Shown here: one piece after another, positions 8,440-43,831 of the stretch | Position numbering within the stretch: position 1 is the first letter of the stretch | Layout: every line of letters starts with the position of its first letter | Sequence record: PZ386969.1 | Strand: one strand, 5' to 3' | Length of the DNA: 64,000 bases | DNA from: a phage | Translations under genes and position numbers: made by a program | Notes under the pieces: model-generated | The model's input: the letters and a program-made list of their open reading frames with translations, nothing else | Told to the model about the DNA's origin: nothing | Databases searched by the model: none

Positions 8440-8469
8440 TTTGATGCTCCATCGATAGGTGCCATTATA

Positions 8470-8482
8470 GAGATATTTAGTA
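8470..8482 (-). promoter_or_regulatory. late-promoter-like CTAAATATCT upstream of the large structural gene
   Basis: minus-strand CTAAATATCTCTATAATGG about 35 nt before the ATG. Confidence 0.4.
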
Positions 8483-8647
8483 TACAACCAACCGAGGAAT
8501 AGAAAGAAATAAGCCCGAAGGGGCTTTGATTATCTTTCTGTGGTTATGGTCATGGATTCGAGACCTCTGCCATTCATGGTAGATGGTATTCAATTAGGTA
8601 TGTTTAATATATCAGGTCAGACTATTACCTTAACTGCTGTATCGATT

Positions 8648-8680
8648 AGGGTAATGCAAACAGTAAACTCTATATAAAAA
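8648..8680. repeat. ~35-nt conserved element downstream of a tailspike gene (copy 1; copy 2 at 13505..13540)
   Basis: AGGGTAATG(C/A)AAACAGTAAACTCTATATAA shared at both loci, each just 3-prime of a tailspike stop. Confidence 0.6.
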
Positions 8681-8695
8681 GTATTATTAATAAGT

Positions 8696-8728
8696 AAAAA
8701 CAACCCCATAGAAGTGGGGTTGTTTTTA
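8696..8728. terminator. bidirectional rho-independent terminator
   Basis: AAAAACAACCCCAT-AGAA-GTGGGGTTGTTTTT. Confidence 0.6.
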
Positions 8729-8740
8729 AGTGATTATTAC

Positions 8741-10657
8741 TTACATAACAACTGCGGCAGATATGTATCCTGAATCTTGATACGATCCAGAAAGGTCAAA
8801 AACTTCTAAGTTAAAAGAGTCAGGGGATGTACTTACGACATTAATTACTAATTTCCCTCCGCTAGTGGTATTGCCAACACTGCATAAAACAGCATAAGCA
8901 GAGGAGGGCATAGTATTAGATAGGTTGACGGTATATTTACCGGTCCCGGTTTTAGTTACAGTTGCTCCATCCGCATACACTGACGACCCCGAAATTCCAT
9001 TAAAATTGATCATTGCCCGTGTACATGCACTCGACCTTTTTGCGACGGTAGACCCAATAAATGCGTATTCTTGGGCCTTGTTAATATAAATCTTATTAAC
9101 AGAAGTGTCAGGTACTTGTAAGACGTTATCTATAACAACATTACAGGCTGTTGCTCCAGATACGGTAGAGCATCTATCTATCTCATAATTGTCGATATTA
9201 ATAGCCCTTACAAAACCTATACCCCCAAATGCTGACCAGTTTTGTTTAACAAGAACACCGGAAATACCGGACAGGAAAATAAGATCGCCTGTCGTATCTT
9301 TGCTAAACGTGTTGTTGGTTATTGAAACAGAAGAAGAACGCGGTGAGTGACTATCATCTGCAACATATACCCTGGCTAAAGAAGAAGCAGTATTCTCTTC
9401 AAAGTAGTTACCATCTACCAGTAACTGCTGTGCACCCCCGGCGACAACACCTACGTCATAGCCCGTGTTTGCTTCAAATAGAGAGTCTCTGACTATGAAA
9501 TTTCGTACACTACTTGCAGTACCTGAGTCTCCGATAAGAACACCGTTAACACCATCAAAGAAAGTACAATTATCAACTTTAACTACGTTGATATCTACTT
9601 TTGACGTTTTTACACCATTTGCACATTTAGCGAAATAGCATGAAGTTAGCTCAGCCACCCCGGAAAAATAGTCTGGGGCGTCGTAATGTAAATAAACACC
9701 GTACCGGGCGTTTCTGACAACGCAATCTTGAAGTTTTAGGTACCAAGCCCCTCCGAAATCAAAACCATCAGACGATGAGTCCTGAATATCCAAGAAAAGT
9801 CCAGAAATCTTAGCTCCTATCGCACCACCTTGAACCCGAATGGCGGGTGACGCTAACCCGGTAAACTTAATTACTGAACCTGTTGTTTGGTCATTAACAT
9901 GTCCAAAACTATTACCAACAATACATAGACTATCAGTGGCAGTTATGATTAAAGTAGAGCTTATAAGATAAATACCATCCGGTATGTATAAACTCTTTTT
10001 CGAATCTATTGCTGCCTGAAACGCGGCGGTATCATCGGTCACACCGTCGCCAACAGCCCCGAAGTCCTTGACTGACACCAGGTCTTTATTTTTATCATGT
10101 AGTGTTCGCTTAATGGAGTTGGCCAGAGGTGACTTAAATCCGACCAGACCAGCGCCATCATCAGATGCAAGATTGATTCTCAAGGCTGCATCACCAACAC
10201 TAACCCACTTGTCTAACCCAGTACCTCCAGCACTTTCAGGAGTTGAGCCAGAAGAAACGGTTTTAGGTAACTCACCATCCCAGCGATACTTACCTGTTGT
10301 ATGGGTAAGCAATTCATTTTTAACATTAAGTGTAGCACCATTGTCAAACGACCCAGACAATGTAACGTATTCTTCACGAGATACGGCTAATTCCCCAAGA
10401 TCTACGGAACCAGCTGAATGTACAAGTACGGCATTAGTACCAAGACTTACAGCAGTCACCCCCGAACCAATGTCAGCAGGCAAGGAATAGGCACGCTGAG
10501 TAGCCTTATCATAAATTACTTTGTAACCACCTAAGTCTACACCTACAGCAAAGTAGACTACCTCATTCTGTTTAACACCAAACTTACGGGCAATGGCTTG
10601 CTTATTGGTAAGAATACCAGTAGAGCCTTTACCACCTTGTGAGAACATTTCGTTCAT
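8741..10657 (-). CDS. tailspike protein (638 aa), conserved N-terminal region plus beta-helix-like body
   Basis: N-terminal block VVYFAVG..GYKVIYDK..VLVHSAGSVDLG..REEYVTL..RWDG shared with the two neighbouring genes; repetitive C-terminal body; AAGAGG ribosome site. Confidence 0.75.
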   Translation of the reverse strand: MNEMFSQGGKGSTGILTNKQAIARKFGVKQNEVVYFAVGVDLGGYKVIYDKATQRAYSLPADIGSGVTAVSLGTNAVLVHSAGSVDLGELAVSREEYVTLSGSFDNGATLNVKNELLTHTTGKYRWDGELPKTVSSGSTPESAGGTGLDKWVSVGDAALRINLASDDGAGLVGFKSPLANSIKRTLHDKNKDLVSVKDFGAVGDGVTDDTAAFQAAIDSKKSLYIPDGIYLISSTLIITATDSLCIVGNSFGHVNDQTTGSVIKFTGLASPAIRVQGGAIGAKISGLFLDIQDSSSDGFDFGGAWYLKLQDCVVRNARYGVYLHYDAPDYFSGVAELTSCYFAKCANGVKTSKVDINVVKVDNCTFFDGVNGVLIGDSGTASSVRNFIVRDSLFEANTGYDVGVVAGGAQQLLVDGNYFEENTASSLARVYVADDSHSPRSSSVSITNNTFSKDTTGDLIFLSGISGVLVKQNWSAFGGIGFVRAINIDNYEIDRCSTVSGATACNVVIDNVLQVPDTSVNKIYINKAQEYAFIGSTVAKRSSACTRAMINFNGISGSSVYADGATVTKTGTGKYTVNLSNTMPSSAYAVLCSVGNTTSGGKLVINVVSTSPDSFNLEVFDLSGSYQDSGYISAAVVM

Positions 10658-10678
10658 AACGACCTCTTTGTTTTTCTA

Positions 10679-10701
10679 AGAAACCCCGCCGAAGCGGGGT
10701 T
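10679..10701 (-). terminator. GC hairpin with CTTCGG-type loop between tailspike genes
   Basis: AACCCCGC-TTCG-GCGGGGTT on minus strand after stop of gene 10706..13210. Confidence 0.5.
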
Positions 10702-10705
10702 AGTT

Positions 10706-13210
10706 TTACGAGTAAGCACTCTCGAACTTACAAAACCAGGTTGCTCCTTCATCAGTTGTTGACAACCTAAAAACTTGTGTTCCAGCTGCTGTCAAAGATG
10801 GGGTATTGCTTGCTAATTTAACATTTGCACCAAATGTTATTGTTTTAGATGTTGTTGAACAGACAGCCAAAAGAACCTCAACATAACCAATTAGTGTATT
10901 TGTTAATACTGCTGGAGTTATTGTTACATCTCCTGTAACTGTAGCTGCGATGTAAGATGCGTCTGAAAAGTCAGGCGCATAACTTGCTGTTGGCGTCTCG
11001 AACTTTGGATTTCTTACCAATACAGGAACTCCAACATTTTTCCTGAAAATTGTACTATTGCAAACCATATCATACTCTATACCAACAAAATTCTTAGCTG
11101 CAAGTATGTTAGTAAATGTCTGGTCCGCAGAGTAAATATGAGTTATCAGCCTTGCCACCCATGCTGGTGAGTTTGAGTTTTCACACTCAATGAATGAACA
11201 GTTGATACTACCAACGGCGAATGGCATTAGTGATGCCGTATATGAAGATAGCCCTGCGTCATTAAACGCATTCATATTCACAAACGTCTGGCATTGAGAG
11301 AACGTATTACCGGTGGCTCCACCATCAATAAAAAAGCCAATCCCGCCGTTAATATAACCATCTACAGGATCTAAATTAGCTTTCGCGTAGTCCCATTTTG
11401 ATGGAGAATCTGCAAAACATTGATTGAAGGAATTGTTTATTGAGTTCTGTACAACAAAGCAGCATTTCATCCTTGAGTTCTGGTCAGTGACTGTATCGTC
11501 ATACATGCCCCAGTTGTGCACCTTACTAATTCTGTTATTGCCACCACCACGAACCCAGGTACCAAATCGGAAATAACGACCTTCACCCATACTAACCTGA
11601 TGATCGCTACCTTCAACAATGTGGGCTGTGCTGAGTGGATTAGTTGGTTTTAATACACCAACAGCATAAAACTTCAATAGGTGCACACCCATACCGCCAG
11701 CAATATGGATGCCATGACCATCAATATTGGCTACGTAAATGCCATCTAACTTGTTGGCATAACCATCAGATATTTTAAATCCATTAACAGTTTTTGCACG
11801 GGCATCAATTAAAAGATTGCTAATGTGCCCAGCGTATTGATTACCTGTACCTTTATCACACTTTACAGCATAACCAGATGAGTCTGCTATGAAGTCATCT
11901 GTCAGGTATACCCCACCGAAACCAGCATCAATGCTAACATCTCCGTGAATGTGTAGTGTCGTACTGATAGGATATTTCTTCCCATTCAGCCTGATAACTT
12001 TGCTTACAGTGTTAGGTTGTAGCCAGTCAGGATGGTTAGCAGCACTACTTGGTGCATGTTCTAAACCTGTTAAAGCTGCCGCAGCATCAATCGCATCCTG
12101 TAATGATGGATACATATCCGGGTTGACATTTATAATTTTCTTAAGCGCATTGCCAACAGTACCAGTTTCGTAATCAATTGACTTATCAAAACCTGAAAAA
12201 CCTGCTCCTGTAGGTTTAGCCAATTCTGACTTCAATGAAGCATCACCAACACTAACCCATGCACCTGTTCCAACACCACCGGTTGATGTAGTGGTTGAGT
12301 CAGCGGGGACAACTTTAGGTAGTGCACCCTCCCACGTATAGCACTGACCACCAGCGATGTGCCAAACAGCATCCGTTTCACTATTAACTGTTGCACCTTC
12401 TTCAAAGCTACCAGCAACGAGAGATAAACCTGCTTCTGCAAGTAAACGTCTCCACAATTCTCTGGTATTCGACTCTTGATGAGTAGGTAACAAAGTAACA
12501 GTAATATTACCTGGATTGTACGTTAACTGCCCATTACTAACGGATGAGATGTATATGTTAGAGGGTAATGAAGGTAACCCATATGACTTCTGCTCACTAA
12601 CAGAGTAGACAATCTTTTTACCATTCAATAATTGCGTAGTGTCAGTGCTAAGAATTACTTCACTGTCCTTAACGTTAGTTGCACGAGCGATTTCTTGAAT
12701 ACTTCGGTCAAACAACGGACTGATATTCGGTTGTTTAACAGACATTTCAGCGACTACCCAAACGCCTGCAGTCAGCGCAGTTTGTAAAGACACTTTCCCT
12801 GTCGTGCTGTCATAGGAATATTCAATTTCGGGTGTTTTGTACTCACCACCGATATAAAGAGATTGGACTCCATAATATGTGTAATCAGGAGTGAACTCGG
12901 TTTCACCTCCTATAGCCTGAAACTTATAGATTCGAACCCCGGTTTTATAATCTTCTGGAGACAGAATCTTATCAAACAGACAGAACACAACGTCACCTTT
13001 GGATAATGCGCGTCCGAGATTCAACGTATTTCCATCGATTTCAAAGTTGTCTAACGGAACTTGCATGCCACCGTTGATTGTGACTATACCAGTGACAGGG
13101 TAGAAAGGGAGGGAGATAAACTTCTCTCCACCCGTTGCTGTGTAAGTGTATGGAATCTGGTGCGGAGCTGTTACGACCGCTCCAAAGATGCTCTCGACGT
13201 TTCTGGTCAT
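10706..13210 (-). CDS. tailspike protein (~834 aa from second ATG)
   Basis: shares N-terminal conserved block with neighbours; second ATG at 13210 has GGGG ribosome site while ATG at 13225 lies inside the hairpin. Confidence 0.75.
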   Translation of the reverse strand: MTRNVESIFGAVVTAPHQIPYTYTATGGEKFISLPFYPVTGIVTINGGMQVPLDNFEIDGNTLNLGRALSKGDVVFCLFDKILSPEDYKTGVRIYKFQAIGGETEFTPDYTYYGVQSLYIGGEYKTPEIEYSYDSTTGKVSLQTALTAGVWVVAEMSVKQPNISPLFDRSIQEIARATNVKDSEVILSTDTTQLLNGKKIVYSVSEQKSYGLPSLPSNIYISSVSNGQLTYNPGNITVTLLPTHQESNTRELWRRLLAEAGLSLVAGSFEEGATVNSETDAVWHIAGGQCYTWEGALPKVVPADSTTTSTGGVGTGAWVSVGDASLKSELAKPTGAGFSGFDKSIDYETGTVGNALKKIINVNPDMYPSLQDAIDAAAALTGLEHAPSSAANHPDWLQPNTVSKVIRLNGKKYPISTTLHIHGDVSIDAGFGGVYLTDDFIADSSGYAVKCDKGTGNQYAGHISNLLIDARAKTVNGFKISDGYANKLDGIYVANIDGHGIHIAGGMGVHLLKFYAVGVLKPTNPLSTAHIVEGSDHQVSMGEGRYFRFGTWVRGGGNNRISKVHNWGMYDDTVTDQNSRMKCCFVVQNSINNSFNQCFADSPSKWDYAKANLDPVDGYINGGIGFFIDGGATGNTFSQCQTFVNMNAFNDAGLSSYTASLMPFAVGSINCSFIECENSNSPAWVARLITHIYSADQTFTNILAAKNFVGIEYDMVCNSTIFRKNVGVPVLVRNPKFETPTASYAPDFSDASYIAATVTGDVTITPAVLTNTLIGYVEVLLAVCSTTSKTITFGANVKLASNTPSLTAAGTQVFRLSTTDEGATWFCKFESAYS

Positions 13211-13215
13211 TTGAA

Positions 13216-13255
13216 GATACCCCATAGAGGATTTGCCAATATGGGGTATTTAGTC
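13216..13255 (-). promoter_or_regulatory. late-promoter-like CTAAATACCCC with inverted copy GGGGTAT covering the translation start
   Basis: perfect 10-bp inverted repeat ATACCCCATA/TATGGGGTAT. Confidence 0.5.
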
Positions 13256-13290
13256 TGAACTAATAAATTTATGAACAAAGGTATAACAAG

Positions 13291-13310
13291 AACCCCGCCA
13301 AAGCGGGGTT
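13291..13310. terminator. GC-rich hairpin
   Basis: AACCCCGC-CAAA-GCGGGGTT. Confidence 0.4.
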
Positions 13311-13318
13311 TGACACTC

Positions 13319-13492
13319 CTATTCCAGACACATTTCAAAATGTATACCAACATCACCCCACCCATCATAAACAGACGACCCCGATATTCTTGATCCATCT
13401 ATGTTGGCGAAATAAAAATACGCTGACCCATCATTGATATCACCTATAAAGTTCTTATACCCGTTTGATGACAACCCGAGAGAGAGCCAACA
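13319..13492 (-). pseudogene. possible relic of a tailspike C-terminal segment (no start codon)
   Basis: minus-strand frame gives ...ANIDGSRISGSSVYDGWG...; the heptapeptide ISGSSVY also occurs near the C-terminus of tailspike 8741..10657 (NFNGISGSSVYADG). Confidence 0.3.
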
Positions 13493-13504
13493 GCATTATC
13501 AATC

Positions 13505-13540
13505 AGGGTAATGAAAACAGTAAACTCTATATAATAAAAG
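13505..13540. repeat. conserved element downstream of tailspike gene (copy 2)
   Basis: see 8648..8680. Confidence 0.6.
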
Positions 13541-13562
13541 CCCCCAAAATTGGGGGCTTTTT
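13537..13562. terminator. bidirectional rho-independent terminator
   Basis: AAAGCCCCC-AAAATT-GGGGGCTTTTT. Confidence 0.6.
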
Positions 13563-13568
13563 ATTATA

Positions 13569-16500
13569 CTACCAGTAATACCAATCACCTTTTTTACTTC
13601 TGACTAGAATAGAACAATCGGTAACAGCTACTGTAGACACCCCACCAATCCTTATCTCATACAGTTTACTAGGCAATCTTTTCTTAGTTAGAGAGACTTT
13701 AAAATCTGTACCAGTTACAGTGATATATTCCGTCCCATCCTCACTATCTATCTGTAAATCTAGGCCGCTGGGACTTGCTGGGAGCTTAACATAAAGCTGT
13801 TGTTCTGCTGTACTACCAGCAAAATGACCGATAACTGTAGATGTCCACTCACTTAAAGTCAACCCTGAACGCACAAAGTCTACATTGAGCGGTTCCTTAA
13901 TAAGTGCAGCAGGTGCATTGTAATTATGCCCGTTAAGTACATAGTAGTTGCTGCTACCAACCTCTACTGTGTCTGCTGTGCAGTAAGAGTGGAAGGTTTT
14001 TGCGTTATCAAAGCGATATAGACTTCTGATTAGCACACGCTCTTGATTGCTTCTGGTTAAAATGCCACAACCTGCGGAAAGGTGGAGTGTGGAGATGGTA
14101 AGCGTATGACTTTCACTGTTGGCCTTGGATGACAGCAATGACACCTTGGGTTCACCCTCTTGAGTAAAGTCTTTACTATTACCCTCACAGTACATGACCC
14201 CAATGTCCCACGCAGCAGGGTCCATTGTTACTACCCCAGCACCTGCCGTATTCTCAGAGCAAATCACACCAACACTGGTAGACAAACCACGACCTAAGAT
14301 AATACCAGCACCTATTGTATATTTACTCGCATCATCCGTGATTGGGTCATAACCTAGTCCCGTAGACTTATCAGTACCCCATGCACTAATGTGAGGGAAG
14401 TGTGTAGCATTCACATAGGTATCCCCTTGCTCACCTTCTGTTGAATAACCTAATGCCATACCCCTTGCACAGTTGTTTGCATGGAGAGTGCCCATTTGAA
14501 AATACCAGCAAGCAAACATTACAATGCCATATCTATTAGCATTATATGCATAGATGCTACCCATCTCAGATTCTGCACACAGAAGACGTGCATAAAAACC
14601 ATATGATGCAATATCTGCACAGTCTACGTTTAAGCTACCGATTAAGCGTAATCCTCGCACTTGATTCTCTGTATTAGCCACATCCACTGTTGCTGTACCG
14701 ACAGGAAATTTACTAACGCGTACAACAGCTTTTAACGTAGGCCATACGGAGCCAATTGCTTTAATTGTTGCCCCGTTTAGATTCCCACGTAAGTAAGAAG
14801 GTATAACAACCTCATCCGTTACGTGGTAGGTAGAATTCCCATTCAGATTTAATGTACCTGTGGCTATAGCTAGTTTTATAGCAGGTAAACAGTCAAAACT
14901 AGGGTCATTGGGGATTGCACCAAAATTCTCAGGTGAGTGTTCATTAAACCCTGTTAGCTTACCAACGTTAGTCCAAGAAGAGTCTGGGGCAGCACCATAA
15001 CTAACAGGTAGTGTCCCATTGTACTTGTACCAGAACCCATCTGAATGTAGAACAACCTGATATTTATCGGATACATTCCCACCATCACCGAATACACCGC
15101 TCTTTTTGTAAAGAGACAGACTACCGGAATCAATAAGAGAAGAACCTTTCCAGGAGGCTAAACGTTGCTCTAATCCAACAACACCAACTACAAGCCATGC
15201 CCCTGGACCAACACCTCCTGTACCCAATGGGGTAGATTCTGGAGGGACTACTTTGGGTACAGAACCATCCCAACGATATTTAATATCGTTACTCACAACC
15301 AACTCATTCTTGGTATTAACAGTTACACCTGTATCGAATGAACCAGGTAAGGTCACATACTCCTCACGAGATACGGCTAATGCGCCCAGATCAACACTAC
15401 CAGCAGAATGCACAAGTACAGCCGAAGAACTAAGGCTGACTGCCGTGGTTCCAGTCGGTAGCTCTGGAATAAAATATGATCTCTGTGTTACTTTATCATA
15501 GATAACTTTATACCCGCTTAGCACAGCACCAACACTAAAATAAACGACCTCTGTATCTTTAACATTGGTTACACGAGCCACTTCCCGCAAAGTATGATCA
15601 ATTTGATTATAGATGTTTGGTGTTCCATTGATAATTACAACAACTTCATCTTCTGGTTCCAGTTCTTGCGCCAGAGTGATTTTACTGGTTAATGGATCGA
15701 ATGTGAATCCCAGATTTTTATACTGACGACTTCCGTTTATATCAATGGCCGGAACATCATCAACAACGACGTCCAACGTGATTTCGGTTTCACCGCCAAT
15801 CGCTGAACCCCCATTATAGACCCAAGTAATCGTAGAAGAACTAGAACCACCGCCATTACCCAATTGAATAGGAGTATATTCAATCACCTGAAGTTCTGTG
15901 CTGGCTGGCAAAGAAGGACTGAAAGTGATTACATTCCCATCTAGTGAATATTTGGATTCCGCAAGGCGTTTTCCGTCAGCATACACGTCCACGATTGTTG
16001 GTGGAGTATTGAGAGTGACAGTACTTGTTTCAGACGCCAAAATTTTTGTAAAGATTTCACGACTGTAGACACGGCCTTGGCCAAGACCGACGCCGGATGT
16101 AATAATCCAACCTTGTTCAGGTCCAGACCAAGTGAACGTTGCTGATACGTTATCAGTTGTTATAGCCATGTCTTCAGTGGAGCCATACAAATTATTTCCA
16201 GAAGGAGACACGGTCAATGGGTAAGTGGCAAATTTCCCATAAGCATCACAAATAGTAACGGAATCCCCAATACGCGTAGGGGAAGGGAGAACCACTGTAG
16301 ATGCCCCTGTGGTATTATTAATGAGATAGCCTCGCCCTTCAGTGAGCGTTGCCGTAGAGGCATGCGGAAGGACTTCCCAGCGGATGCCACCGCCACCCAG
16401 CGGCAACCAACCACCATTTTCGTAATAACCTTCGAATTCGTCGGAGTCGGCATTGTAGCGAACGGAAGACGGGAGTCCTGCGCTGGCATTACCCTCGGGT

Positions 16501-34904: not shown

Positions 34905-35278
34905 AAATTCAAATCCCTCGCGATGCTGTGGCTGTTGCGATTGACTACACCGGAAACGCCAAGCACATTACTGCCGTGCGCCTGATTCCTGAAAAGAACT
35001 GCGTCATCCCTCAGTTCCAGCTGAATGCCAATCCGTCGTCCAAAGACTTCGGTAAGTGGTTGCAGGCTGCTCCGTTCCGTACCCAGACGAATGCCCAGAT
35101 GTTCATCTCGGGTAAGACCCACACTGTAGCCCGTCTTTGGTTTGTGACCGCCGACCGCCGCTTCATCGATATGTGGGAACGTCCGATGGGGTTCGTGAAG
35201 CCGGAAGATATTCAGCTGGCTCCTGAGCCTGAAGCTGTGGCTCCTGAAGAGGAAGCGAAAGATGCATCATTTATCTAA
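34901..35278 (+). CDS. hypothetical protein (125 aa)
   Basis: ATG 34901 with AGGAACC upstream; track ORF 34766 trimmed. Confidence 0.45.
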   Translation: MKIQIPRDAVAVAIDYTGNAKHITAVRLIPEKNCVIPQFQLNANPSSKDFGKWLQAAPFRTQTNAQMFISGKTHTVARLWFVTADRRFIDMWERPMGFVKPEDIQLAPEPEAVAPEEEAKDASFI

Positions 35279-36500
35279 AATGCCGACGGGTTATACGCCT
35301 CCGGCTGAATGGAAGTACCCGATTGACCTGGCTGTTGATTATCGCAAGCCTGAGAATCGCATGTACCTGCTCAAGGCTTGGGTGGAGGCGCTGTCCTACA
35401 CAGAAGAGCACAACCAGCAGATGCGTCTGATGGACTATGCGATCGAAGTCACTGAAGGCATCAGCCTCGAACAGAAAGTCGAGCGCAAGATCTGGATGGC
35501 ATTCCTGTGGGGTTGTTGCTATAACGCCGTCGGACCGTGGACGATCTACAGTGAGTTCCCTGTGCCGCCTCAGTCTAAGGAAGAGATGCAGCGCTTCTCT
35601 GATTGGTATAATCTGAACTTTGAACGCATGCGATTCGATACCGACTGTCGCTACCGCAAGTCCAAGATGATTCCGTGTGTTCAGTCCTATATTGACTGGC
35701 TGGCTGGCCGTACTCAATATGACGCTTTCCGTGGGATGTTGGTGTGCATCGATAAGACAGAACAATTCACCCAGCTGTGGGACACGGCGATGTCCTGGAA
35801 ATACTTCGGTCGCCTGAGCGCCTGGAACTTCCTGGAAGCCCTGAACATGGTCTTCGGGAACGAATACACCATTGACGTCCCTGGCTTCATGCTGCGTGAT
35901 CGTGATGGAAGCGAGTCCAACCGTAATGGCGCGGCGTTCTTGTCCAACCGTGACGATTGGGTGACTAAACACGGGAAGAAAAAGATCAACGGTTGTCCTA
36001 TCACGGATGAAGAGTGTGACATCCTTGAGGCCGACCTTGAGCAGGCGTTCCAGGATTGTGTGGCTGAGTTCGGGCACCTGACGTTCATCAACCGCCTGAA
36101 CTTTGAAACCTCCGGTGCTTGTTGGCTGAAGAAATTCTTCCGACTGAAGAATACCCGTTACATCGGGTGGGACGCAGAGCGTACCTGGGATGAGATAGAC
36201 TACATGGAACGCGTCTGGCCTGAATACTCCTGCGCAGCGCTCTGGGAAGCCCGTTCGCTCTGGCTGCCAGATACCCTGTTATGTGAAAAGGCTCCTGCAG
36301 GGCACGTTCCAGGCGTCCAGAAGTGGAAGATGCCTGTATTCTTTGAGACTGGTGTTCCTCTGCATATCTGGCACCTGCAAAAGGGTACGCGCTGGGAACC
36401 ATCCGAGGTATGTACGAACCTGAAGATGCCTGTGCGCAAGGTTGAGGACAAGCAGCCGCGCAAACATAGCGTCAACCTCATGACACTCTTGAAACGCTGA
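35262..36500 (+). CDS. hypothetical protein (412 aa); possible DNA-modification enzyme by context
   Basis: ORF track; GAGGAAG ribosome site; sits with kinase, HAD and PLP genes beside the polymerase; no motif confirmed. Confidence 0.3.
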   Translation: MHHLSKMPTGYTPPAEWKYPIDLAVDYRKPENRMYLLKAWVEALSYTEEHNQQMRLMDYAIEVTEGISLEQKVERKIWMAFLWGCCYNAVGPWTIYSEFPVPPQSKEEMQRFSDWYNLNFERMRFDTDCRYRKSKMIPCVQSYIDWLAGRTQYDAFRGMLVCIDKTEQFTQLWDTAMSWKYFGRLSAWNFLEALNMVFGNEYTIDVPGFMLRDRDGSESNRNGAAFLSNRDDWVTKHGKKKINGCPITDEECDILEADLEQAFQDCVAEFGHLTFINRLNFETSGACWLKKFFRLKNTRYIGWDAERTWDEIDYMERVWPEYSCAALWEARSLWLPDTLLCEKAPAGHVPGVQKWKMPVFFETGVPLHIWHLQKGTRWEPSEVCTNLKMPVRKVEDKQPRKHSVNLMTLLKR

Positions 36501-36536
36501 TATAAATATCCTCGCCTATAAAGTGAGGATATTATC

Positions 36537-36704
36537 ATGTTACAAGATCTGTTGGTGTACGCGCTTCCTGGCGTTGTTGTCGGTTTCGTAGCTGGTGCTC
36601 TGGTCTTCCGTAAACACGCGCAAGACGGTGAAGTGATTGTTCAGAAGGGTAAGGACATCCTGGAACAAATCGAAGCCAAGCTGGAAGAGCTGAAGAAAAA
36701 GTAA
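36537..36704 (+). CDS. small membrane protein (55 aa), not in ORF track
   Basis: ATG with GAGGA upstream; hydrophobic core LVYALPGVVVGFVAGALVF. Confidence 0.4.
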   Translation: MLQDLLVYALPGVVVGFVAGALVFRKHAQDGEVIVQKGKDILEQIEAKLEELKKK

Positions 36705-36721
36705 TCTGACTGCGGATTGCG

Positions 36722-36772
36722 TTCTTCAATAAAGGGGAATGGGTTAATATTAGCCCGTTCCCCTTTCTTTTT
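36722..36772 (+). terminator. terminator hairpin preceded by TTCTTCAATAAA
   Basis: AAAGGGGAATGGG-TTAATATTAG-CCCGTTCCCCTTT followed by CTTTTT. Confidence 0.55.
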
Positions 36773-36786
36773 GCAAGGATTGATTT

Positions 36787-36978
36787 ATGACACCTCAATA
36801 CAAAATATTGGTCACCAGCCGTTGTTATGCTTATGGACAGGGTGAAGCAATATCAGTACACACAGTTGTAGTTGATTTTGAAAACAAAGAACAAGCAGAT
36901 TTGGCATTCTATAATATGCAGCAGAGCACAGCTCCTGCCGATATTGGCGTTAAACAAGTTTATACGAAATTATACTGA
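36787..36978 (+). CDS. small hypothetical protein (63 aa)
   Basis: ORF track; AAGGA upstream. Confidence 0.35.
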   Translation: MTPQYKILVTSRCYAYGQGEAISVHTVVVDFENKEQADLAFYNMQQSTAPADIGVKQVYTKLY

Positions 36979-36989
36979 GGTCCTATATC

Positions 36990-37202
36990 ATGGCAATGCA
37001 ACGAATTGAAGACATGTCTGCGCTCGATATGGAAGCGACTTTTGGTGATTACTTTGAGTCCACCCCAAAACAAAAAGAACCTCTGGTTGGTCGTTTGGTT
37101 GTTTCTGAAGCGTTCGCCCAGAAGGTTCGCGAAGGTCTTCCTGCAGAATATAGTTGTTTCCGTAATGGCGCTCCTGTTATCGTCATGGGAGAATCTAAAT
37201 GA
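36990..37202 (+). CDS. small hypothetical protein (70 aa)
   Basis: ORF track. Confidence 0.35.
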   Translation: MAMQRIEDMSALDMEATFGDYFESTPKQKEPLVGRLVVSEAFAQKVREGLPAEYSCFRNGAPVIVMGESK

Positions 37203-37585
37203 CACAGTCCGAATACAAACAGTACCTGTACGATCTGTTCATGAAAGAAACGGATGGTACACTCCACCCTAAGAAAGCCACTATCGTCGCGTTGCATTCT
37301 GAAGGTAATTTGTCTATAGCATATATCCGAAAAGAACTCGATTTGTTGGGAATCGAATACGAAGACCACATCACGGATACACGTGCTTTAAAAAGAGCAA
37401 CAGCAATCGTTCTTCACACCGTTGCAACAATTATGCATCGCCACCATGTTTCTTTTGACGATGCAATAACTCCACAGTACCATGAAGAGCGTTGGGATTT
37501 GTTGTTAAAGAACGGTGCTAATCCTGAGCATAAAGATCAACTCCTTGGTATGACCAAGGCGCAGCTCGTCGGTGAATCCAAATGA
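37199..37585 (+). CDS. hypothetical protein (128 aa)
   Basis: ORF track; ATGA overlap with neighbours. Confidence 0.45.
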   Translation: MTQSEYKQYLYDLFMKETDGTLHPKKATIVALHSEGNLSIAYIRKELDLLGIEYEDHITDTRALKRATAIVLHTVATIMHRHHVSFDDAITPQYHEERWDLLLKNGANPEHKDQLLGMTKAQLVGESK

Positions 37586-38697
37586 TCTACCTCCTGTTTG
37601 GTGTGCCATTGGTACTGGCTATCCTCTTTGTGACCTACCACCGCAAGACCCATGAGCCGAAAGAGACTCTGATTGCGACGGCGATTGTGGTGGTGCTGTC
37701 CTGTCTGATTCAGGTCGGGGCTTATGCTGCGTTCTCCCTCGGCAGTTCAGGGGACGTTGAGATCCTGAACGGGTACGTCACTGCAAAGGAGCGGAATAAG
37801 GTGAGCTGTGAGCATTCATATGAATGTATGTGCTATTACACAACATCTTGTACAGGTTCAGGAAATAACCGATCTTGTACACAAACGCGTCATTGCAGCA
37901 CATGCTATGAGCACTCTTATGACGTTGATTGGGATGTATTAACAACCGTCGGCGATCTGAGCATTGACCGTATTGATCGTCAGGGTACTACAGAGCCTCC
38001 GCGTTGGACACAAGTTAAAATCGGGGAACCTGTGGCACGTGAACATTCATATATGAATTATGTGCTGGGTAACAAAGACTCTCTGTTCTCTCGTTCAGAC
38101 CAGCAGTTTGCTGAGCGCTTCAAAGACAAGATTCCGAAGTATCCCGAAGTCTATGACTACTATCGCGTCACTCGTGTACTGAATGTGTCTGGTCTGGCGT
38201 TACCGACCACATACTGGAACGATTATCTGAATGATGCCCTGAAGAAGCTGGGCGCAGCCAAGCAGGTGAACATCGTCTGGGTTGTGACTTCCGGGCAGCC
38301 AGTTGAATACTTCCAGGGCTTGGTCTATGCTTGGGATGGTGGTAAAAAGAACGACGTTATCGTCGTGACCGACATCAACAAAGACCTGAAGATCAACTGG
38401 GGTAAGAGCACTTCGTTCGCTGATGGTATGCACAACCGTGAACTCCATTCTCGCAATGGCATGGCTCTCACAGGCCACGACATGGGTGTCGGTGTCATGG
38501 CTGATGTTGTCACTAACATCACCAAAGGCTACAACCGCGTTGAGATGAAGGAAATGGAGTACCTGAAGTGGCGGGAACTCAAGACCTGGGAAGTTGTGGT
38601 TGTTGTTCTGCTGGGCTGCTTACCATTCACCGCAATTTTCATATTACAGCGAATGGAGTACAATGGTGGCCGTCGTCGTTATCCGTTTAATTTTTAA
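37582..38697 (+). CDS. membrane protein with N- and C-terminal hydrophobic helices and Cys-rich ectodomain (371 aa)
   Basis: hydrophobic segments at both ends; cysteine cluster CEHSYECMCYYTTSCTGSGNNRSCTQTRHCSTCYEHSY. Confidence 0.5.
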   Translation: MIYLLFGVPLVLAILFVTYHRKTHEPKETLIATAIVVVLSCLIQVGAYAAFSLGSSGDVEILNGYVTAKERNKVSCEHSYECMCYYTTSCTGSGNNRSCTQTRHCSTCYEHSYDVDWDVLTTVGDLSIDRIDRQGTTEPPRWTQVKIGEPVAREHSYMNYVLGNKDSLFSRSDQQFAERFKDKIPKYPEVYDYYRVTRVLNVSGLALPTTYWNDYLNDALKKLGAAKQVNIVWVVTSGQPVEYFQGLVYAWDGGKKNDVIVVTDINKDLKINWGKSTSFADGMHNRELHSRNGMALTGHDMGVGVMADVVTNITKGYNRVEMKEMEYLKWRELKTWEVVVVVLLGCLPFTAIFILQRMEYNGGRRRYPFNF

Positions 38698-38715
38698 TCA
38701 AAAGAGGAAGTAAGA

Positions 38716-39285
38716 ATGTCTCAATCTAAGGGTATCGCAACAGGTTGGATAGTTGGTTTGGCTTTGCTGGGTATAGTGATTCTCGGCATCAGTACAGTCA
38801 TCAGCTACTTCAACGACTTCAACCGCACTGAGCAGCAGGTCAAGAAGTTCAACAAAGACTCCGAGAACTACCTGAGCAACTACACGCTCAAAGTTCAGGA
38901 GACGGCGCAGATTCCTGACATGTATAAAGACGGCCTGAAGGAAGTGATCAAAGGCACGTTCGAAGGGCGTTATGGTGCTGATGGTTCCAAGGCCGTCATG
39001 CAGTGGATCCAGGAGCAGAATATTCAGTTCGATTCCAGCCTGTACAAAGAGATCCAGGTGGTGATCAGTTCTGGGCGTGATGAATTCCGCATCAGCCAGA
39101 CCAAGAAGCTGGATATCTGCACAATATACGAAACCAAGCTGGCTCAGTTCCCTGGTTCGTTGATTGCTGGCATGTTCGGCTACCCGCGCATCGACCTTGA
39201 CAAGACCTGCCAGGTGGTGAGTGATACCCGTACCCAGGCCGCGTTCGACGCTGGTATTCAGAAACCGATTAACTTCAAAGGCTGA
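38716..39285 (+). CDS. membrane-anchored protein, possibly LemA-like
   Basis: single N-terminal hydrophobic helix then soluble domain; weak resemblance to LemA-type proteins. Confidence 0.35.
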   Translation: MSQSKGIATGWIVGLALLGIVILGISTVISYFNDFNRTEQQVKKFNKDSENYLSNYTLKVQETAQIPDMYKDGLKEVIKGTFEGRYGADGSKAVMQWIQEQNIQFDSSLYKEIQVVISSGRDEFRISQTKKLDICTIYETKLAQFPGSLIAGMFGYPRIDLDKTCQVVSDTRTQAAFDAGIQKPINFKG

Positions 39286-39289
39286 TGTC

Positions 39290-39703
39290 ATGAGCGTGAA
39301 ACTCACTGAATCCCTGACACTGGACCAACAGCAGGCTCTGTTGGATGAAGTGGTGATCTCTGCTATCAAGCAAGGGATTATCAAAGACGACATGTTGATT
39401 GACCGCCCCGAGATGATCCATCATCTGGTGGTGTGCCTGGGTGAGGCCAGCAACCCTCGCAAGAAGATCGTGCTGTTTACTGATGGTGTGATCCTTCCGA
39501 GCGGGAAATGTGCGTTCTTGGATGTGGTTGAACATCCGAACACGAAAGGCAAAGAGGTCAAGACTTCTGTTCCGGTGACCCCATACACCGAGGGTGTTGA
39601 CCAGCTGTCTTGGTTTGAGACAATCAACACCATTTATGTGATGGCACCGGACGGTAAACCAGTTCGGGATCTACGAGGCGGCAAAGTAGAATCTGAAGAC
39701 TAA
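39290..39703 (+). CDS. hypothetical protein (137 aa from ATG 39290)
   Basis: in-frame ATG inside track ORF 39221..39703. Confidence 0.4.
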   Translation: MSVKLTESLTLDQQQALLDEVVISAIKQGIIKDDMLIDRPEMIHHLVVCLGEASNPRKKIVLFTDGVILPSGKCAFLDVVEHPNTKGKEVKTSVPVTPYTEGVDQLSWFETINTIYVMAPDGKPVRDLRGGKVESED

Positions 39704-41074: not shown

Positions 41075-43831
41075 ATGAAAATGCGCAAGTCCGAGCACTT
41101 TATCCGCTCGTCGTCTTCCATTCAGGGGCAGGCGTTCAACGTGAAGATGAACGATAAGATGTTTGAGACTCTGTTCTCATCATTGTATCGTTACAAAGAG
41201 GCTGCAGCCCTGCGCGAAACCGTCTGTAACGCCATCGACTCCCATGGCATGCGTGATCGTATGCACCGTGTGATGGCATCCCACTACGCGCCTCTCACTC
41301 CGCCTCCTGCCCGCCATAGCAAATACCTTGCACCGAAGGGTAAGCAGGTTGTTGTGCATCTACCTGATGACTTTGAACCATGGCTGGAAATACGTGATTA
41401 CGGCATCGGTCTGCCACTTGAGAAGATCATTGGCGAGCCTATCCCAGCGCAGGAAGATGAGGTGCTGCTGGAAGGCAACATGGTGGTTAAGGAAGATGAG
41501 ATCCCTGACTCAGCTGAGGTCATCGGCGTGCCTGCGTTCTATAATGGTGGTCTAGTGTTCCGTCGCGAAGATGGTGAAATCATTCGTACGCCTGGGTTGT
41601 ATACCACTCTCTTCCACAGTACGAAGGAAGAAGATGATGATCAGATTGGGGCATTCGGTCTTGGCTCCAAATCACCATTTGCGGTATCGGATTCGTTCAC
41701 AGTGGAAAGCCGCATGGACGGTAAACTCCATCGCTTCCTGATGTACCTGAATGCCAAGCGCATCCCGACTGTTGATCTGATCACCAAAGATCTTGAAACC
41801 CGTGATCCTAAGCCGGAAGACACCGATGAGTTCAACGGCATGACGGTGAAGATCCCGGTGAAGAACGCTCGCTTCTCCGCATTCTCTGATGAACTGGTCC
41901 GTCTTGGTCGTGTTATGCGCCCTGAACAACGTCCAATTGTTGAGAACGCTTCATACCGCTTCAGCTGGGAAGATATCAGTTATGATTTCAAGGTCAACAA
42001 CACGTACATCCAGCCGAAAGGCCAGGGGAACACCCACTACGCTGTGATGGGCGGCGTGTCATACCCGATTGACCTGGACCAGCTGGACCCGGACACTGCT
42101 TCCATCATGAGCAAGTTCCCGTCGTCTTATACATTCTTTGAACTCGGTTCCCTGAACGTACCGCCGTCGCGTGAAGACCTGTCGTATGACGAATTCACCC
42201 GTGAGACGCTCTCTGAGGAGTTTAAGGGCACCGCCAATGCAATCTTGACAGAAAAGATGCGTGACCTGGAGCTGGCGTGTAAGCGCGGTCCTCTTGCCCT
42301 GTATATGGAGAAGGTAAAACTGAGTGAAATGTTCGGCAGTGGGTTCCGCAAGATGGTTGAAAAGGAATACCCGGCAGACAAGCGCTTTCATGATTCATAT
42401 TACCGTTACCCGCTGCCTGTTGAGATCGACCGTGACTATGACCACACCGCGCCGTTCAATGAATTGTCGTCGCCGTTCTCTATGGAGATCTTCTATGACT
42501 GGGGTGAGTCCAGTAATTTGACCATTTCAGAAATCCAGAAGTGGATTGATCGCGGCCAGCATGTTACTGTGGTGATCGAAGATAGTGTTCGTGCACGTAA
42601 TCTGAAGATCAAGCAGCTGAAAGATACAGGGACGATAGTCATCGTGGCCAAGCCGAACACATCCTATGTCACCAAGCGCAACCAATCTAAGGACAACCCT
42701 GCGTTCAAGAATTCTCAGGCTCTCTATGATTTCTTTGAAACTTGGATTGGTAAAGAAGAAACGACGGTTGATTATCTGTGCTTCGCTGACAAGTTCGTCG
42801 ATTGGCTGAGTGCGGTGCTGGAGCCTGCTGAAGTTAAGTTCATGAACGAACTGACGTATGTCACGCCCCCGGTCACCAAAGACCCTGGCCTGTTTCCGTT
42901 CACGCGCAGCAACTTCGACATATACCAGTATGAAGAACTGACGGGCGACCAGATCTCAGATATCATCAACAAGGGCGAGCGCATCGTCTATATTGAGGTG
43001 TCTGGCCATGCGTGTATCCATCAGGTGATGGACAGAACGTTGACGACTGCGGCGGCGCGGGGTATTCGTAAATCTCTGTATGAGCACGCAGTCAGTGTCG
43101 ACGATGAAGGCAAGCCAGTGTACATCAGCGATATGTTGAACGTTCACAACCGAATCTTCTTGGCTCGTCGTAAATCCGTGCCAATGATGAAGAAGTTCCC
43201 AGAGGTCTTCATACCGATCGATGAAATCCTGAAGATCATGTTGGAAAACGTGAAGCCTATGATGGAGCGCGATAGCGCCAGGCGCATACTGGAATCATAC
43301 CGCCGCATGCGCCTTGGGGCGGATCGATTAAAATACGGGAGTCATCTGGTTCATCAGGCGTTTGGTGATGTTGAAGACGATCGTTATGGCAAATTGGTCA
43401 GCCGTTACAACAAGTTAATGAAAGTTGTGGACGATATCTTGGATGAGCAGACTGTACGTCATTACCAAAGCCTGGCGAAAGCCCCGGTTTCAATCAATGA
43501 CAAGCGTCGATTTAGCCATTTCCAGGACACAATACATTCTCTTAACGTGAATTTGTACGCCAACGAGCGTGACGAAAAGATCTTCCGTTCAGAACATCAG
43601 ATGCTACAGATCTTTGAATACGCTTCGGATGTGTTGCTGTCTCATGGATTTACACCGTTTGATATATCGAGGACTCCGTCATTGAAAGCAAGGCGGGAAA
43701 ACCGATTGACCATCGAGCGTCATCGTGTTGTCCGGTTCTTGAAAGAGAATTACAAACCAAGCGCCCTGAACCCGATTGAAAAATCTTCGGATTACTTGGA
43801 CGTTATTTCAAATTCCATTATCAGGGCATAA
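41075..43831 (+). CDS. rIIA: rIIA-like protein with N-terminal GHKL-type ATPase motif (918 aa)
   Basis: N-terminal AALRETVCNAIDSH resembles the N-box of the GHKL ATPase fold found in rIIA; size and early-region position. Confidence 0.5.
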   Translation: MKMRKSEHFIRSSSSIQGQAFNVKMNDKMFETLFSSLYRYKEAAALRETVCNAIDSHGMRDRMHRVMASHYAPLTPPPARHSKYLAPKGKQVVVHLPDDFEPWLEIRDYGIGLPLEKIIGEPIPAQEDEVLLEGNMVVKEDEIPDSAEVIGVPAFYNGGLVFRREDGEIIRTPGLYTTLFHSTKEEDDDQIGAFGLGSKSPFAVSDSFTVESRMDGKLHRFLMYLNAKRIPTVDLITKDLETRDPKPEDTDEFNGMTVKIPVKNARFSAFSDELVRLGRVMRPEQRPIVENASYRFSWEDISYDFKVNNTYIQPKGQGNTHYAVMGGVSYPIDLDQLDPDTASIMSKFPSSYTFFELGSLNVPPSREDLSYDEFTRETLSEEFKGTANAILTEKMRDLELACKRGPLALYMEKVKLSEMFGSGFRKMVEKEYPADKRFHDSYYRYPLPVEIDRDYDHTAPFNELSSPFSMEIFYDWGESSNLTISEIQKWIDRGQHVTVVIEDSVRARNLKIKQLKDTGTIVIVAKPNTSYVTKRNQSKDNPAFKNSQALYDFFETWIGKEETTVDYLCFADKFVDWLSAVLEPAEVKFMNELTYVTPPVTKDPGLFPFTRSNFDIYQYEELTGDQISDIINKGERIVYIEVSGHACIHQVMDRTLTTAAARGIRKSLYEHAVSVDDEGKPVYISDMLNVHNRIFLARRKSVPMMKKFPEVFIPIDEILKIMLENVKPMMERDSARRILESYRRMRLGADRLKYGSHLVHQAFGDVEDDRYGKLVSRYNKLMKVVDDILDEQTVRHYQSLAKAPVSINDKRRFSHFQDTIHSLNVNLYANERDEKIFRSEHQMLQIFEYASDVLLSHGFTPFDISRTPSLKARRENRLTIERHRVVRFLKENYKPSALNPIEKSSDYLDVISNSIIRA

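Follow-up and report, generated by a model that had tools for sequence, protein, structure and literature searches.

The stretch of phage DNA analysed here (sequence record PZ386969.1; 64,000 nucleotides (nt), hereafter the window) carries, at positions 36537-39285 of its + strand, six tightly packed genes, to which we refer as g55, g63, g70, g128, g371 and g189 (Table 1). All open reading frames (ORFs) of this interval are real, conserved genes, matching PHROG families at E-values between 2e-32 and 2e-163. The original prediction for this interval had described four consecutive membrane-associated products; Kyte-Doolittle hydropathy analysis revealed the transmembrane (TM) helices that it anticipated, but in only three of the six genes (g55, g371 and g189), with none in g63, g70 and g128, the three genes between g55 and g371. 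The last two genes of the interval, g371 and g189, are the subject of this analysis, and together they are very probably a divergent phage counterpart of the bacterial LemA-TPM gene pair.

The product of g371 displays three hydrophobic segments (residues 1-19, 29-47 and 337-355), two of them N-terminal and one C-terminal, so that its earlier description as a protein with helices at both ends holds, whilst the count of two helices in all does not. Exactly three such segments are found in 53 of the 55 diverse homologues on which we built an AlphaFold2 (AF2) model of the protein (pLDDT 90.5, pTM 0.79). In this model the membrane segments enclose a stalk of long β-strands and an α/β domain with the element order E199-H209-E230-H242-E258-E270-H286-H303. 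That order fits the TPM topology, and both the fold and the core motif of TPM domains (a hydrophobic strand followed by a W.xGxxxxN/DG-hydrophobic strand) are found in g371. The family is large: 486 clusters at 90% identity were retrieved at E ≤ 0.001, and an exhaustive search gave 2138 clusters at 50% identity, nearly all of them 340-390 amino acids (aa) long. The best 150 of the exhaustive search are all full-length relatives, and the point at which the family merges with cellular TPM proteins thus lies outside them.

Searches with g371 itself against Pfam, NCBIfam and PADLOC returned no family matches; in Pfam there was nothing at E ≤ 0.1, and PF04536 was absent from the matches at E ≤ 1, which comprised two unrelated families. 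Amongst g371 homologues, the only recurring Pfam family was TPM_phosphatase (PF04536), matched by 12 of 55 sequences (best E 1.8e-4) and by 4 of 123, all below threshold. A Foldseek search of the PDB with the whole chain returned 9h70 (probability 0.97; TM-score 0.44, normalised to the target), the structure of the PF04536 (TPM-domain) protein LMTP1, and a search of BFVD returned full-length viral relatives, one of which is named 'TPM domain-containing protein' (E 8.7e-22). With hhalign, residues 225-267 of g371 aligned, weakly (probability 39%), on the core motif of a Thermotoga TPM protein. From the recurrence of PF04536, the 9h70 and BFVD matches and the core-motif alignment, we conclude that the predicted C-terminal periplasmic domain of g371 is, at the level of sequence and model, a divergent TPM fold. 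A full-length g371-family profile searched against PDB sequences retrieved no TPM entry, only a chance match to LolA (E 0.51).

The β-hairpin stalk that precedes this domain appears to be an undescribed domain without detectable relative: used alone as a query it matched nothing amongst PDB sequences and gave no match in Pfam. Foldseek also matched g371 to FliF collars and to the stems of pore toxins; these matches are due to the long hairpins and we read them as non-homologous. The stalk holds most of the cysteines of the protein, seven of nine falling within residues 76-108 (C76, C82, C84, C90, C99, C105 and C108), in agreement with the cysteine-dense ectodomain noted previously. The ectodomain contains seven cysteines in 40 of the 55 sequences and five in 9, and the losses are joint: seven sequences lack both C84 and C105, two lack both C90 and C99, and one lacks both C82 and C108. 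In the AF2 hairpin formed by strands 79-91 and 98-109, positions 84/105 and 90/99 face each other in register. This lockstep loss of cysteine pairs, together with the facing register, speaks for structural disulfides, and so for placement in the periplasm, rather than for zinc binding. A zinc-ribbon reading of the cluster was considered and rejected, as disulfides agree better with cross-strand pairs being lost in lockstep and with the predicted periplasmic placement. Once the pairs 84/105, 90/99 and 82/108 have taken six cysteines, the invariant C76 is left unpaired. H78, H111, D114, D116, W117, R141 and N159 are near-invariant across 123-142 diverse members of the family and, judging from strand register, C76, H78, H111, D114 and D116 should sit at the membrane-distal turns of the modelled stalk.

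The charges that flank the membrane segments also bear on topology. Across the g371 family, the mean number of lysines plus arginines is 0.08 in the N-terminal tail, 1.79 in the 9-residue loop between TM1 and TM2 and 0.62 in the 15 residues past TM2, a bias from which we predict an N-out protein with a cytoplasmic loop, a large periplasmic domain and a cytoplasmic basic tail. For the g189 family, a net positive N-terminal tail and a net negative flank past the TM helix predict an N-in, C-out orientation. Cysteines C135 and C165 of g189 likewise come and go together, both being present in 26 sequences, neither in 18 and a single one in 0. A 553-aa protein, P0223, joins g371-like residues 1-355 to g189-like residues 374-541 (41% identity) in an arrangement whose predicted topology stays coherent; it could be a natural fusion or an artefact of gene calling. 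On the basis of charge bias, lockstep loss of cysteine pairs and the P0223 fusion, we strongly infer that both large domains are periplasmic, as we do the disulfides from the patterns described above, and we hold the predicted membrane topology of g371 and g189 as a whole to be likely.

The second gene of the pair, g189, starts 18 nt past the end of g371 and encodes a protein with one hydrophobic segment (residues 12-30). Its AF2 model (pLDDT 81.9) consists of helices 7-64, 68-82, 87-100 and 108-143, the first of which runs for 58 residues, and this combination of a TM helix and a long-helix bundle matches the architecture described for LemA (bioRxiv 10.64898/2026.07.15.738315). The earlier label of a single-helix LemA-like protein was borne out at the level of the superfamily but not at the Pfam threshold: g189 scored 13.7 bits against PF04011 (E 0.055), for which the curated cut-off is 26.2 bits, whereas its family profile matched the LemA crystal structure PDB 2ETD over residues 32-160 (E 8.7e-4), and hhalign aligned the family with LemA (E 6.8e-5, probability 63%), including the C-terminal signature Y..l..FP....a..fGyP. 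Matches to PF04011 were also found in 10 of 44 g189 homologues (best E 2.4e-4), all sub-threshold. These comparisons indicate that g189 is a divergent, below-threshold member of the LemA superfamily. A match to LeoBC over the TM helix and coiled coil of g189 (E 4e-4, in the PADLOC/NCBIfam search) was read as noise.

The two genes are strictly paired. At nearly every related locus with room downstream, the gene next after a g371 homologue encodes a homologue of g189; loci of this kind are Escherichia phage vB_EcoM-RPN242 (hereafter RPN242), phage Marshall, metagenomic contigs L003-L005 and L009-L011, six loci from metagenome-assembled genomes (MAGs), ICP1, phage phi 3 and phage PX29. ICP1, the T5-like Vibrio phage phi 3 and the T4-like Aeromonas phage PX29 each keep g371 immediately ahead of g189, and listed coordinates place the two genes side by side in pVp-1, RaK2, Serratia BF, KissB and EC22.5-2. 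In the metagenomic phage L006-L008 the order is kept, with three small ORFs between the two genes; in L006 this insert (7135-8057) encodes a 196-aa membrane protein and two tiny N_methyl (prepilin-type) ORFs. A tblastn search of 50,697 phage records found g371 in 488 and g189 in 502, with near-identical counts per host genus, so the pair is carried by about 1% of sequenced phage genomes, mainly those of large virulent phages of Proteobacteria. Identity between members of unrelated groups (Ackermannviridae, Demerecviridae, Straboviridae, ICP1 and jumbo phages) is about 35-45%. LemA-like homologues also occur in 15 Prevotella Lak megaphage records and in Tenacibaculum phage pT24, in which no g371-like protein was detected at the same search sensitivity; these phages may lack the partner, or may have a TPM protein closer to the canonical type in its place. 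Near the pair in the unrelated phages phi 3 and PX29 and in contig L009, genes for nicotinamide adenine dinucleotide salvage lie within a few kb, namely a nicotinamide/nicotinate phosphoribosyltransferase, a phosphoribosyl pyrophosphate synthetase and a gene resembling nicotinamide mononucleotide adenylyltransferase.

Outside phages the module is rare, occurring in only 7 of 185,579 species-representative genomes, all seven of them MAGs. At least two of these copies, both proteobacterial, lie in an ordinary chromosomal context (L013, 2323-6685; L014, 1438-6706), in which a Na+/H+ exchanger and a CDF-type cation-efflux protein precede the pair, and leuD/leuB or RNase T and MsrB follow it. By their ORF content, L015 and L018 are phage-like. 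A third cellular-looking copy is found in a Magnetococcales MAG (L016).

Table 1 Genes and features in and around the g371/g189 pair (positions are those of the window)
Feature	Position	Strand	Description
TATAAATA motif	36501..36508	+	T4 late-promoter consensus; 29 nt 5' of the g55 start codon; putative promoter
g55	36537..36704	+	55 aa; one N-terminal TM helix and a charged C-terminal helix; phrog_3879, E 2.4e-32
Intrinsic-terminator-like hairpin	36731..36766	+	16-bp stem and T run; between g55 and g63
g63	36787-36978	+	Small soluble protein without hydrophobic segment; PHROG family of unknown function
g70	36990-37202	+	Small soluble protein without hydrophobic segment; PHROG family of unknown function
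g128	37199-37585	+	Small soluble protein without hydrophobic segment; PHROG family of unknown function
g371	37582..38697	+	Predicted inner-membrane protein, 371 aa; large periplasmic region; phrog_2087, E 1.9e-163
g371 N-terminal TM hairpin	37585..37749	+	Helices 2-20 and 26-56; short basic cytoplasmic loop (AF2, hydropathy)
g371 β-hairpin stalk	37750..38061	+	Residues 57-160; very long antiparallel strands 57-74, 79-91, 98-109, 114-121 (AF2)
g371 TPM-like α/β domain	38164..38541	+	Residues ~195-320; core motif KQVNI...W.GGKKNDV
g371 C-terminal TM helix	38584..38652	+	Residues 335-357; followed by basic tail RRRYPFNF
g189	38716..39285	+	Predicted membrane protein; TM ~7-30 runs into long first helix, then helical bundle 32-160
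g137	39290..39703	+	Soluble protein of unknown function; starts 4 nt past g189

The surroundings of the pair place the window in a known phage lineage. Positions 36400-39400 matched 233 phage records, nearly all of Ackermannviridae, the closest relative of the interval being RPN242 (Aglimvirinae; 93.6% identity). The 5' neighbourhood contains DNA polymerase and thymidine-hypermodification genes, including a 412-aa ORF (35262-36500) for an amino acid:DNA transferase (PF18724, E 4.5e-60), and about 1.8 kb downstream of the pair a 918-aa ORF (41075-43831) is by synteny the gene annotated rIIA in phage Marshall. From the match to RPN242 and this gene context, the sequence identifies the phage as a ViI-like member of the Ackermannviridae, of the large Salmonella/E. 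coli type, and not as T4-type in the strict sense, as had been supposed. From g63 to g137, successive genes overlap or are separated by gaps of 18 nt or less, and the stop and start codons of the tightly packed g63, g70 and g128 overlap on the way to g371. Amongst the loci examined, g128 and g137, the two local neighbours used as queries there, have homologues in Ackermannviridae only; we take g63, g70, g128 and g137 to be lineage-specific soluble neighbours of the pair. Elsewhere in the window, the GC content of positions 8001-16000 is about 0.42 as compared with about 0.50 in the remainder; this block spans large minus-strand ORFs of 638-1027 aa, which, judged by position, are probably tail-spike genes. 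Four tRNA genes (Met, Asn, Tyr and Ser) cluster at 23445-24418.

At the 5' end of the interval, g55 is a separate small membrane cistron outside the g371/g189 pair, because a conserved terminator splits it from the remaining five genes and a conserved TATAAATA motif lies upstream of it. The terminator-like hairpin is conserved in RPN242 and in phage Marshall, whose record annotates a terminator there. The putative promoter motif, of which this is the only exact match in the window, also precedes g55 in RPN242 and in Marshall, a Kuttervirus and a more distant relative; expression of g55 is predicted to be late. A scan for sigma-70 promoters found them no more often than in shuffled sequence and placed none ahead of the operon. 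The interval is thus not the single run that had been proposed, although the 55-aa helix peptide named in that proposal is present: g55 has one hydrophobic segment (residues 5-23), and its TM helix bears a glycine zipper, G12xxxG16xxxG20, a motif typical of oligomerising or channel-forming helices. Family matches for g55 were weak, comprising DUF883_C and ZapG (NCBIfam, E 0.018), the latter read as noise.

What might such a pair do during infection? We propose that g371 inserts with its N-terminus outside and crosses the membrane three times, exposing about 280 residues to the periplasm, where a disulfide-stapled β-hairpin stalk would be topped by the conserved Cys/His/Asp cluster and accompanied by the TPM-like domain. 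The g189 protein would be of type II (N-in), its LemA-like bundle likewise on the periplasmic side of the membrane, and the two would form a complex, a presumed physical association. Such a complex may act as a membrane-proximal scaffold or assembly chaperone that builds or stabilises membrane protein complexes, keeping the inner membrane functional whilst a large virulent phage replicates. The suggestion derives from literature in which TPM domains have been argued to be chaperone-like assembly factors of membrane-linked complexes and not phosphatases (PMC11237479; bioRxiv 10.1101/2025.01.14.632903), in which the LemA-family protein MamQ is implicated in membrane remodelling (PMC3905215; bioRxiv 10.64898/2026.07.15.738315), and in which envelope stress in Flavobacterium raises the expression of lemA and of a TPM gene (PMC13236525). 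We also count in favour of membrane maintenance that the chromosomal copies in cells adjoin ion transporters and housekeeping genes. The scaffold or chaperone function is offered tentatively, as one that we doubt more than we trust; in the explanation as a whole, a LemA-TPM membrane scaffold or assembly module, which we favour, our confidence is evenly divided.

Several observations weigh against this explanation. Neither g371 nor g189 reaches the Pfam gathering score for TPM or LemA, and hhalign comparisons of the g371 family with single TPM proteins were weak or negative (probability 39%, 1% and 1%). Foldseek support for g189 as LemA is also weak, with 2ETD at rank 3 (probability 0.51, TM-score 0.40). 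The reversed gene order and the relative-less β-stalk mean that the phage pair may have diverged in function, and likening it to LemA-TPM explains little, as the function of the bacterial pair is itself not established. Finally, a conserved and unpaired C76 accompanied by H78 and H111 is more suggestive of a catalytic or metal-binding role than of a passive scaffold.

Other roles for the pair were weighed against the scaffold explanation. The original prediction had invoked superinfection exclusion or lysis timing, and for neither did positive support emerge, given the lack of family matches, the conservation across phage families, the chromosomal copies and the homology to LemA-TPM; for seven proteins searched against Pfam, NCBIfam and PADLOC there was no match to exclusion or lysis-inhibition families (Imm, Sp, antiholin, RI and holins), and a review of the Ackermannviridae makes no mention of membrane, exclusion or lysis proteins. 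An exclusion pair would face the periplasm and block genome entry or cell-wall penetration by later phages, by analogy with T4 Imm and Sp. Such a role would suit the predicted placement of both proteins in the inner membrane with periplasmic domains, the location of the genes in several phages within non-structural, early-type regions among small accessory genes, and their proximity to the rIIA-like ORF. We nevertheless consider it unlikely, as no similarity to exclusion families was found in Pfam or PADLOC, many invariant residues are kept at the identities given above across phage families with different entry routes, non-prophage copies exist on chromosomes in MAGs, and the homologous bacterial LemA-TPM operon is of a housekeeping type. 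A host-side target or chemistry that is itself conserved would account for the conservation of the pair across unrelated phages, and for its cellular copies, better than would a phage-specific exclusion device. For lysis timing, the pair would sense periplasmic signals or modulate the holin or spanin to set or delay lysis, and here the membrane location with periplasmic domains, the rII-type genes near the pair in Ackermannviridae, and matches to holin models in the TM region of the g371 family (Phage_holin_3_2 in 3 of 55 sequences, best E 0.017; Phage_holin_3_3 in 1, E 0.0073) could be taken as support. These matches are, however, weak, confined to hydrophobic helices and lacking for the g371 of the window, the pair does not adjoin lysis genes in ICP1, phi 3 or PX29, and it also occurs in cellular chromosomes, making this role very improbable.

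The conserved stalk residues raise the alternative of a periplasmic enzyme or metal centre, in which C76, H78, H111, D114 and D116 at the stalk tip would modify an envelope component, with LemA as the membrane partner. An invariant and unpaired C76, alongside near-invariant H78, H111, D114, D116, W117, R141 and N159, displays the kind of conservation that we would expect of an active site; yet no enzyme family or fold was matched, the spatial clustering comes from secondary-structure register only, and the phosphatase activity claimed for TPM domains is disputed (PMC11237479; bioRxiv 10.1101/2025.01.14.632903), so that we regard this alternative, too, as improbable. In a bolder version, to which we accord a slim chance, large virulent phages would use the pair as an envelope-remodelling machine peculiar to them: the disulfide-stapled stalk would carry a conserved Cys-His-His-Asp centre some 50-60 Å into the periplasm, there to bind a metal or to act catalytically on a component of the envelope, and LemA would curve or order the inner membrane, as suggested for MamQ. 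The joint outcome would be a remodelled host envelope, or the disarming of an abortive-infection trigger based at the membrane. If true, this reading would be the first to open the LemA-TPM superfamily as a whole to functional study. Database labels suggest, lastly, that g189 is a virion or ejected protein, since it belongs to phrog_1383 (E 5.8e-86), annotated 'virion structural protein', and RefSeq records share the label. That label rests on PHROG and on RefSeq propagation; labels are inconsistent across records, and the GenBank originals mostly read 'hypothetical'. Moreover, g189 lies outside structural modules, the virion mass-spectrometry table of phage LIMEstone1 lists 39 proteins with no ORF beyond 174, whilst this gene follows the DNA polymerase (ORF178-182), and both the strict pairing with a 3-TM membrane protein and the homology to cellular LemA speak against a virion role, which we find scarcely credible. 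Across GenBank and RefSeq, homologues of both g371 and g189 bear labels that conflict: 'LemA', 'Lipoprotein', 'virion structural protein', 'major capsid protein', 'putative RIIA protector' and '4-alpha-glucanotransferase'.

The LemA-TPM scaffold or assembly module thus stays our favoured explanation; amongst bacterial membrane gene pairs that lack a known function, LemA-TPM ranks with the most widespread. Automated annotation occasionally names the two genes 'LemA' or 'TPM domain-containing', and in the literature we found no description of a phage LemA-TPM module, its function or the stalk domain; the present analysis corrects a widespread mislabelling of both genes. The sharp conservation of the pair across phage groups suggests that it is useful for lytic infection, and the viral version, present in at least five unrelated phage groups that include the tractable ICP1 and Kutterviruses, provides a clean loss-of-function system.

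Amongst known systems, the closest comparison is with the bacterial LemA-TPM pair, exemplified by Thermotoga TM0961 (PDB 2ETD) and its downstream TPM gene. LemA itself is abundant: a search with the 2ETD sequence gave at least 8000 candidates, all those scored lying at E ≤ 1e-10. In Thermotoga and Neobacillus a LemA (PF04011) gene is directly followed by a TPM_phosphatase (PF04536) gene, and in Thermincola (L024, 3001-6573) LemA is followed by an unannotated 263-aa protein, possibly a divergent TPM, then by NfeD and the flotillin-like FloA, an order that links LemA to SPFH-type membrane-microdomain genes. As in the phage, the bacterial genes form an adjacent two-gene membrane pair that is translationally coupled or nearly so, in which one partner of about 190 aa has a single N-terminal TM helix, a helical bundle and a C-terminal Y..FP..fGf signature, and the other is a TPM α/β domain with a C-terminal TM anchor. 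The phage pair differs in its reversed order, with the TPM-like gene first, in the position of both proteins below Pfam thresholds, and in the N-terminal TM hairpin and Cys-rich β-stalk of about 100-140 residues added to the TPM partner.

Compared by description, MamQ, which takes part in magnetosome membrane biogenesis, also belongs to the LemA family; its N-terminus forms a TM helix, and its helical domain faces a lumen equivalent to the periplasm. It adjoins the CDF proteins MamB and MamM, as the pair in MAGs adjoins a CDF-type cation-efflux gene, possibly by coincidence, but magnetosome genes are absent here and, to our knowledge, MamQ has no known TPM partner. The YdjG/YdjH proteins of the PspA-YdjI envelope-stress operon of B. 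subtilis combine a TPM protein with a Cys-rich Zn-ribbon membrane partner in envelope maintenance (PMC11237479). In g371, by contrast, Cys-rich region and TPM domain share one chain, and the former is predicted to be periplasmic and disulfide-bonded, not zinc-binding; similarity to YdjG/YdjH was not detectable, and no PspA or band-7 gene adjoins the phage pair. With T4 Imm, Sp and RI, the phage pair shares its nature as phage inner-membrane proteins with periplasmic parts, encoded outside structural modules, but neither sequence nor fold similarity. The T4 proteins are small and lineage-restricted, exclusion proteins being fast-evolving and phage-specific, whereas the g371/g189 pair is large, highly conserved across phage families and has homologues in cells.

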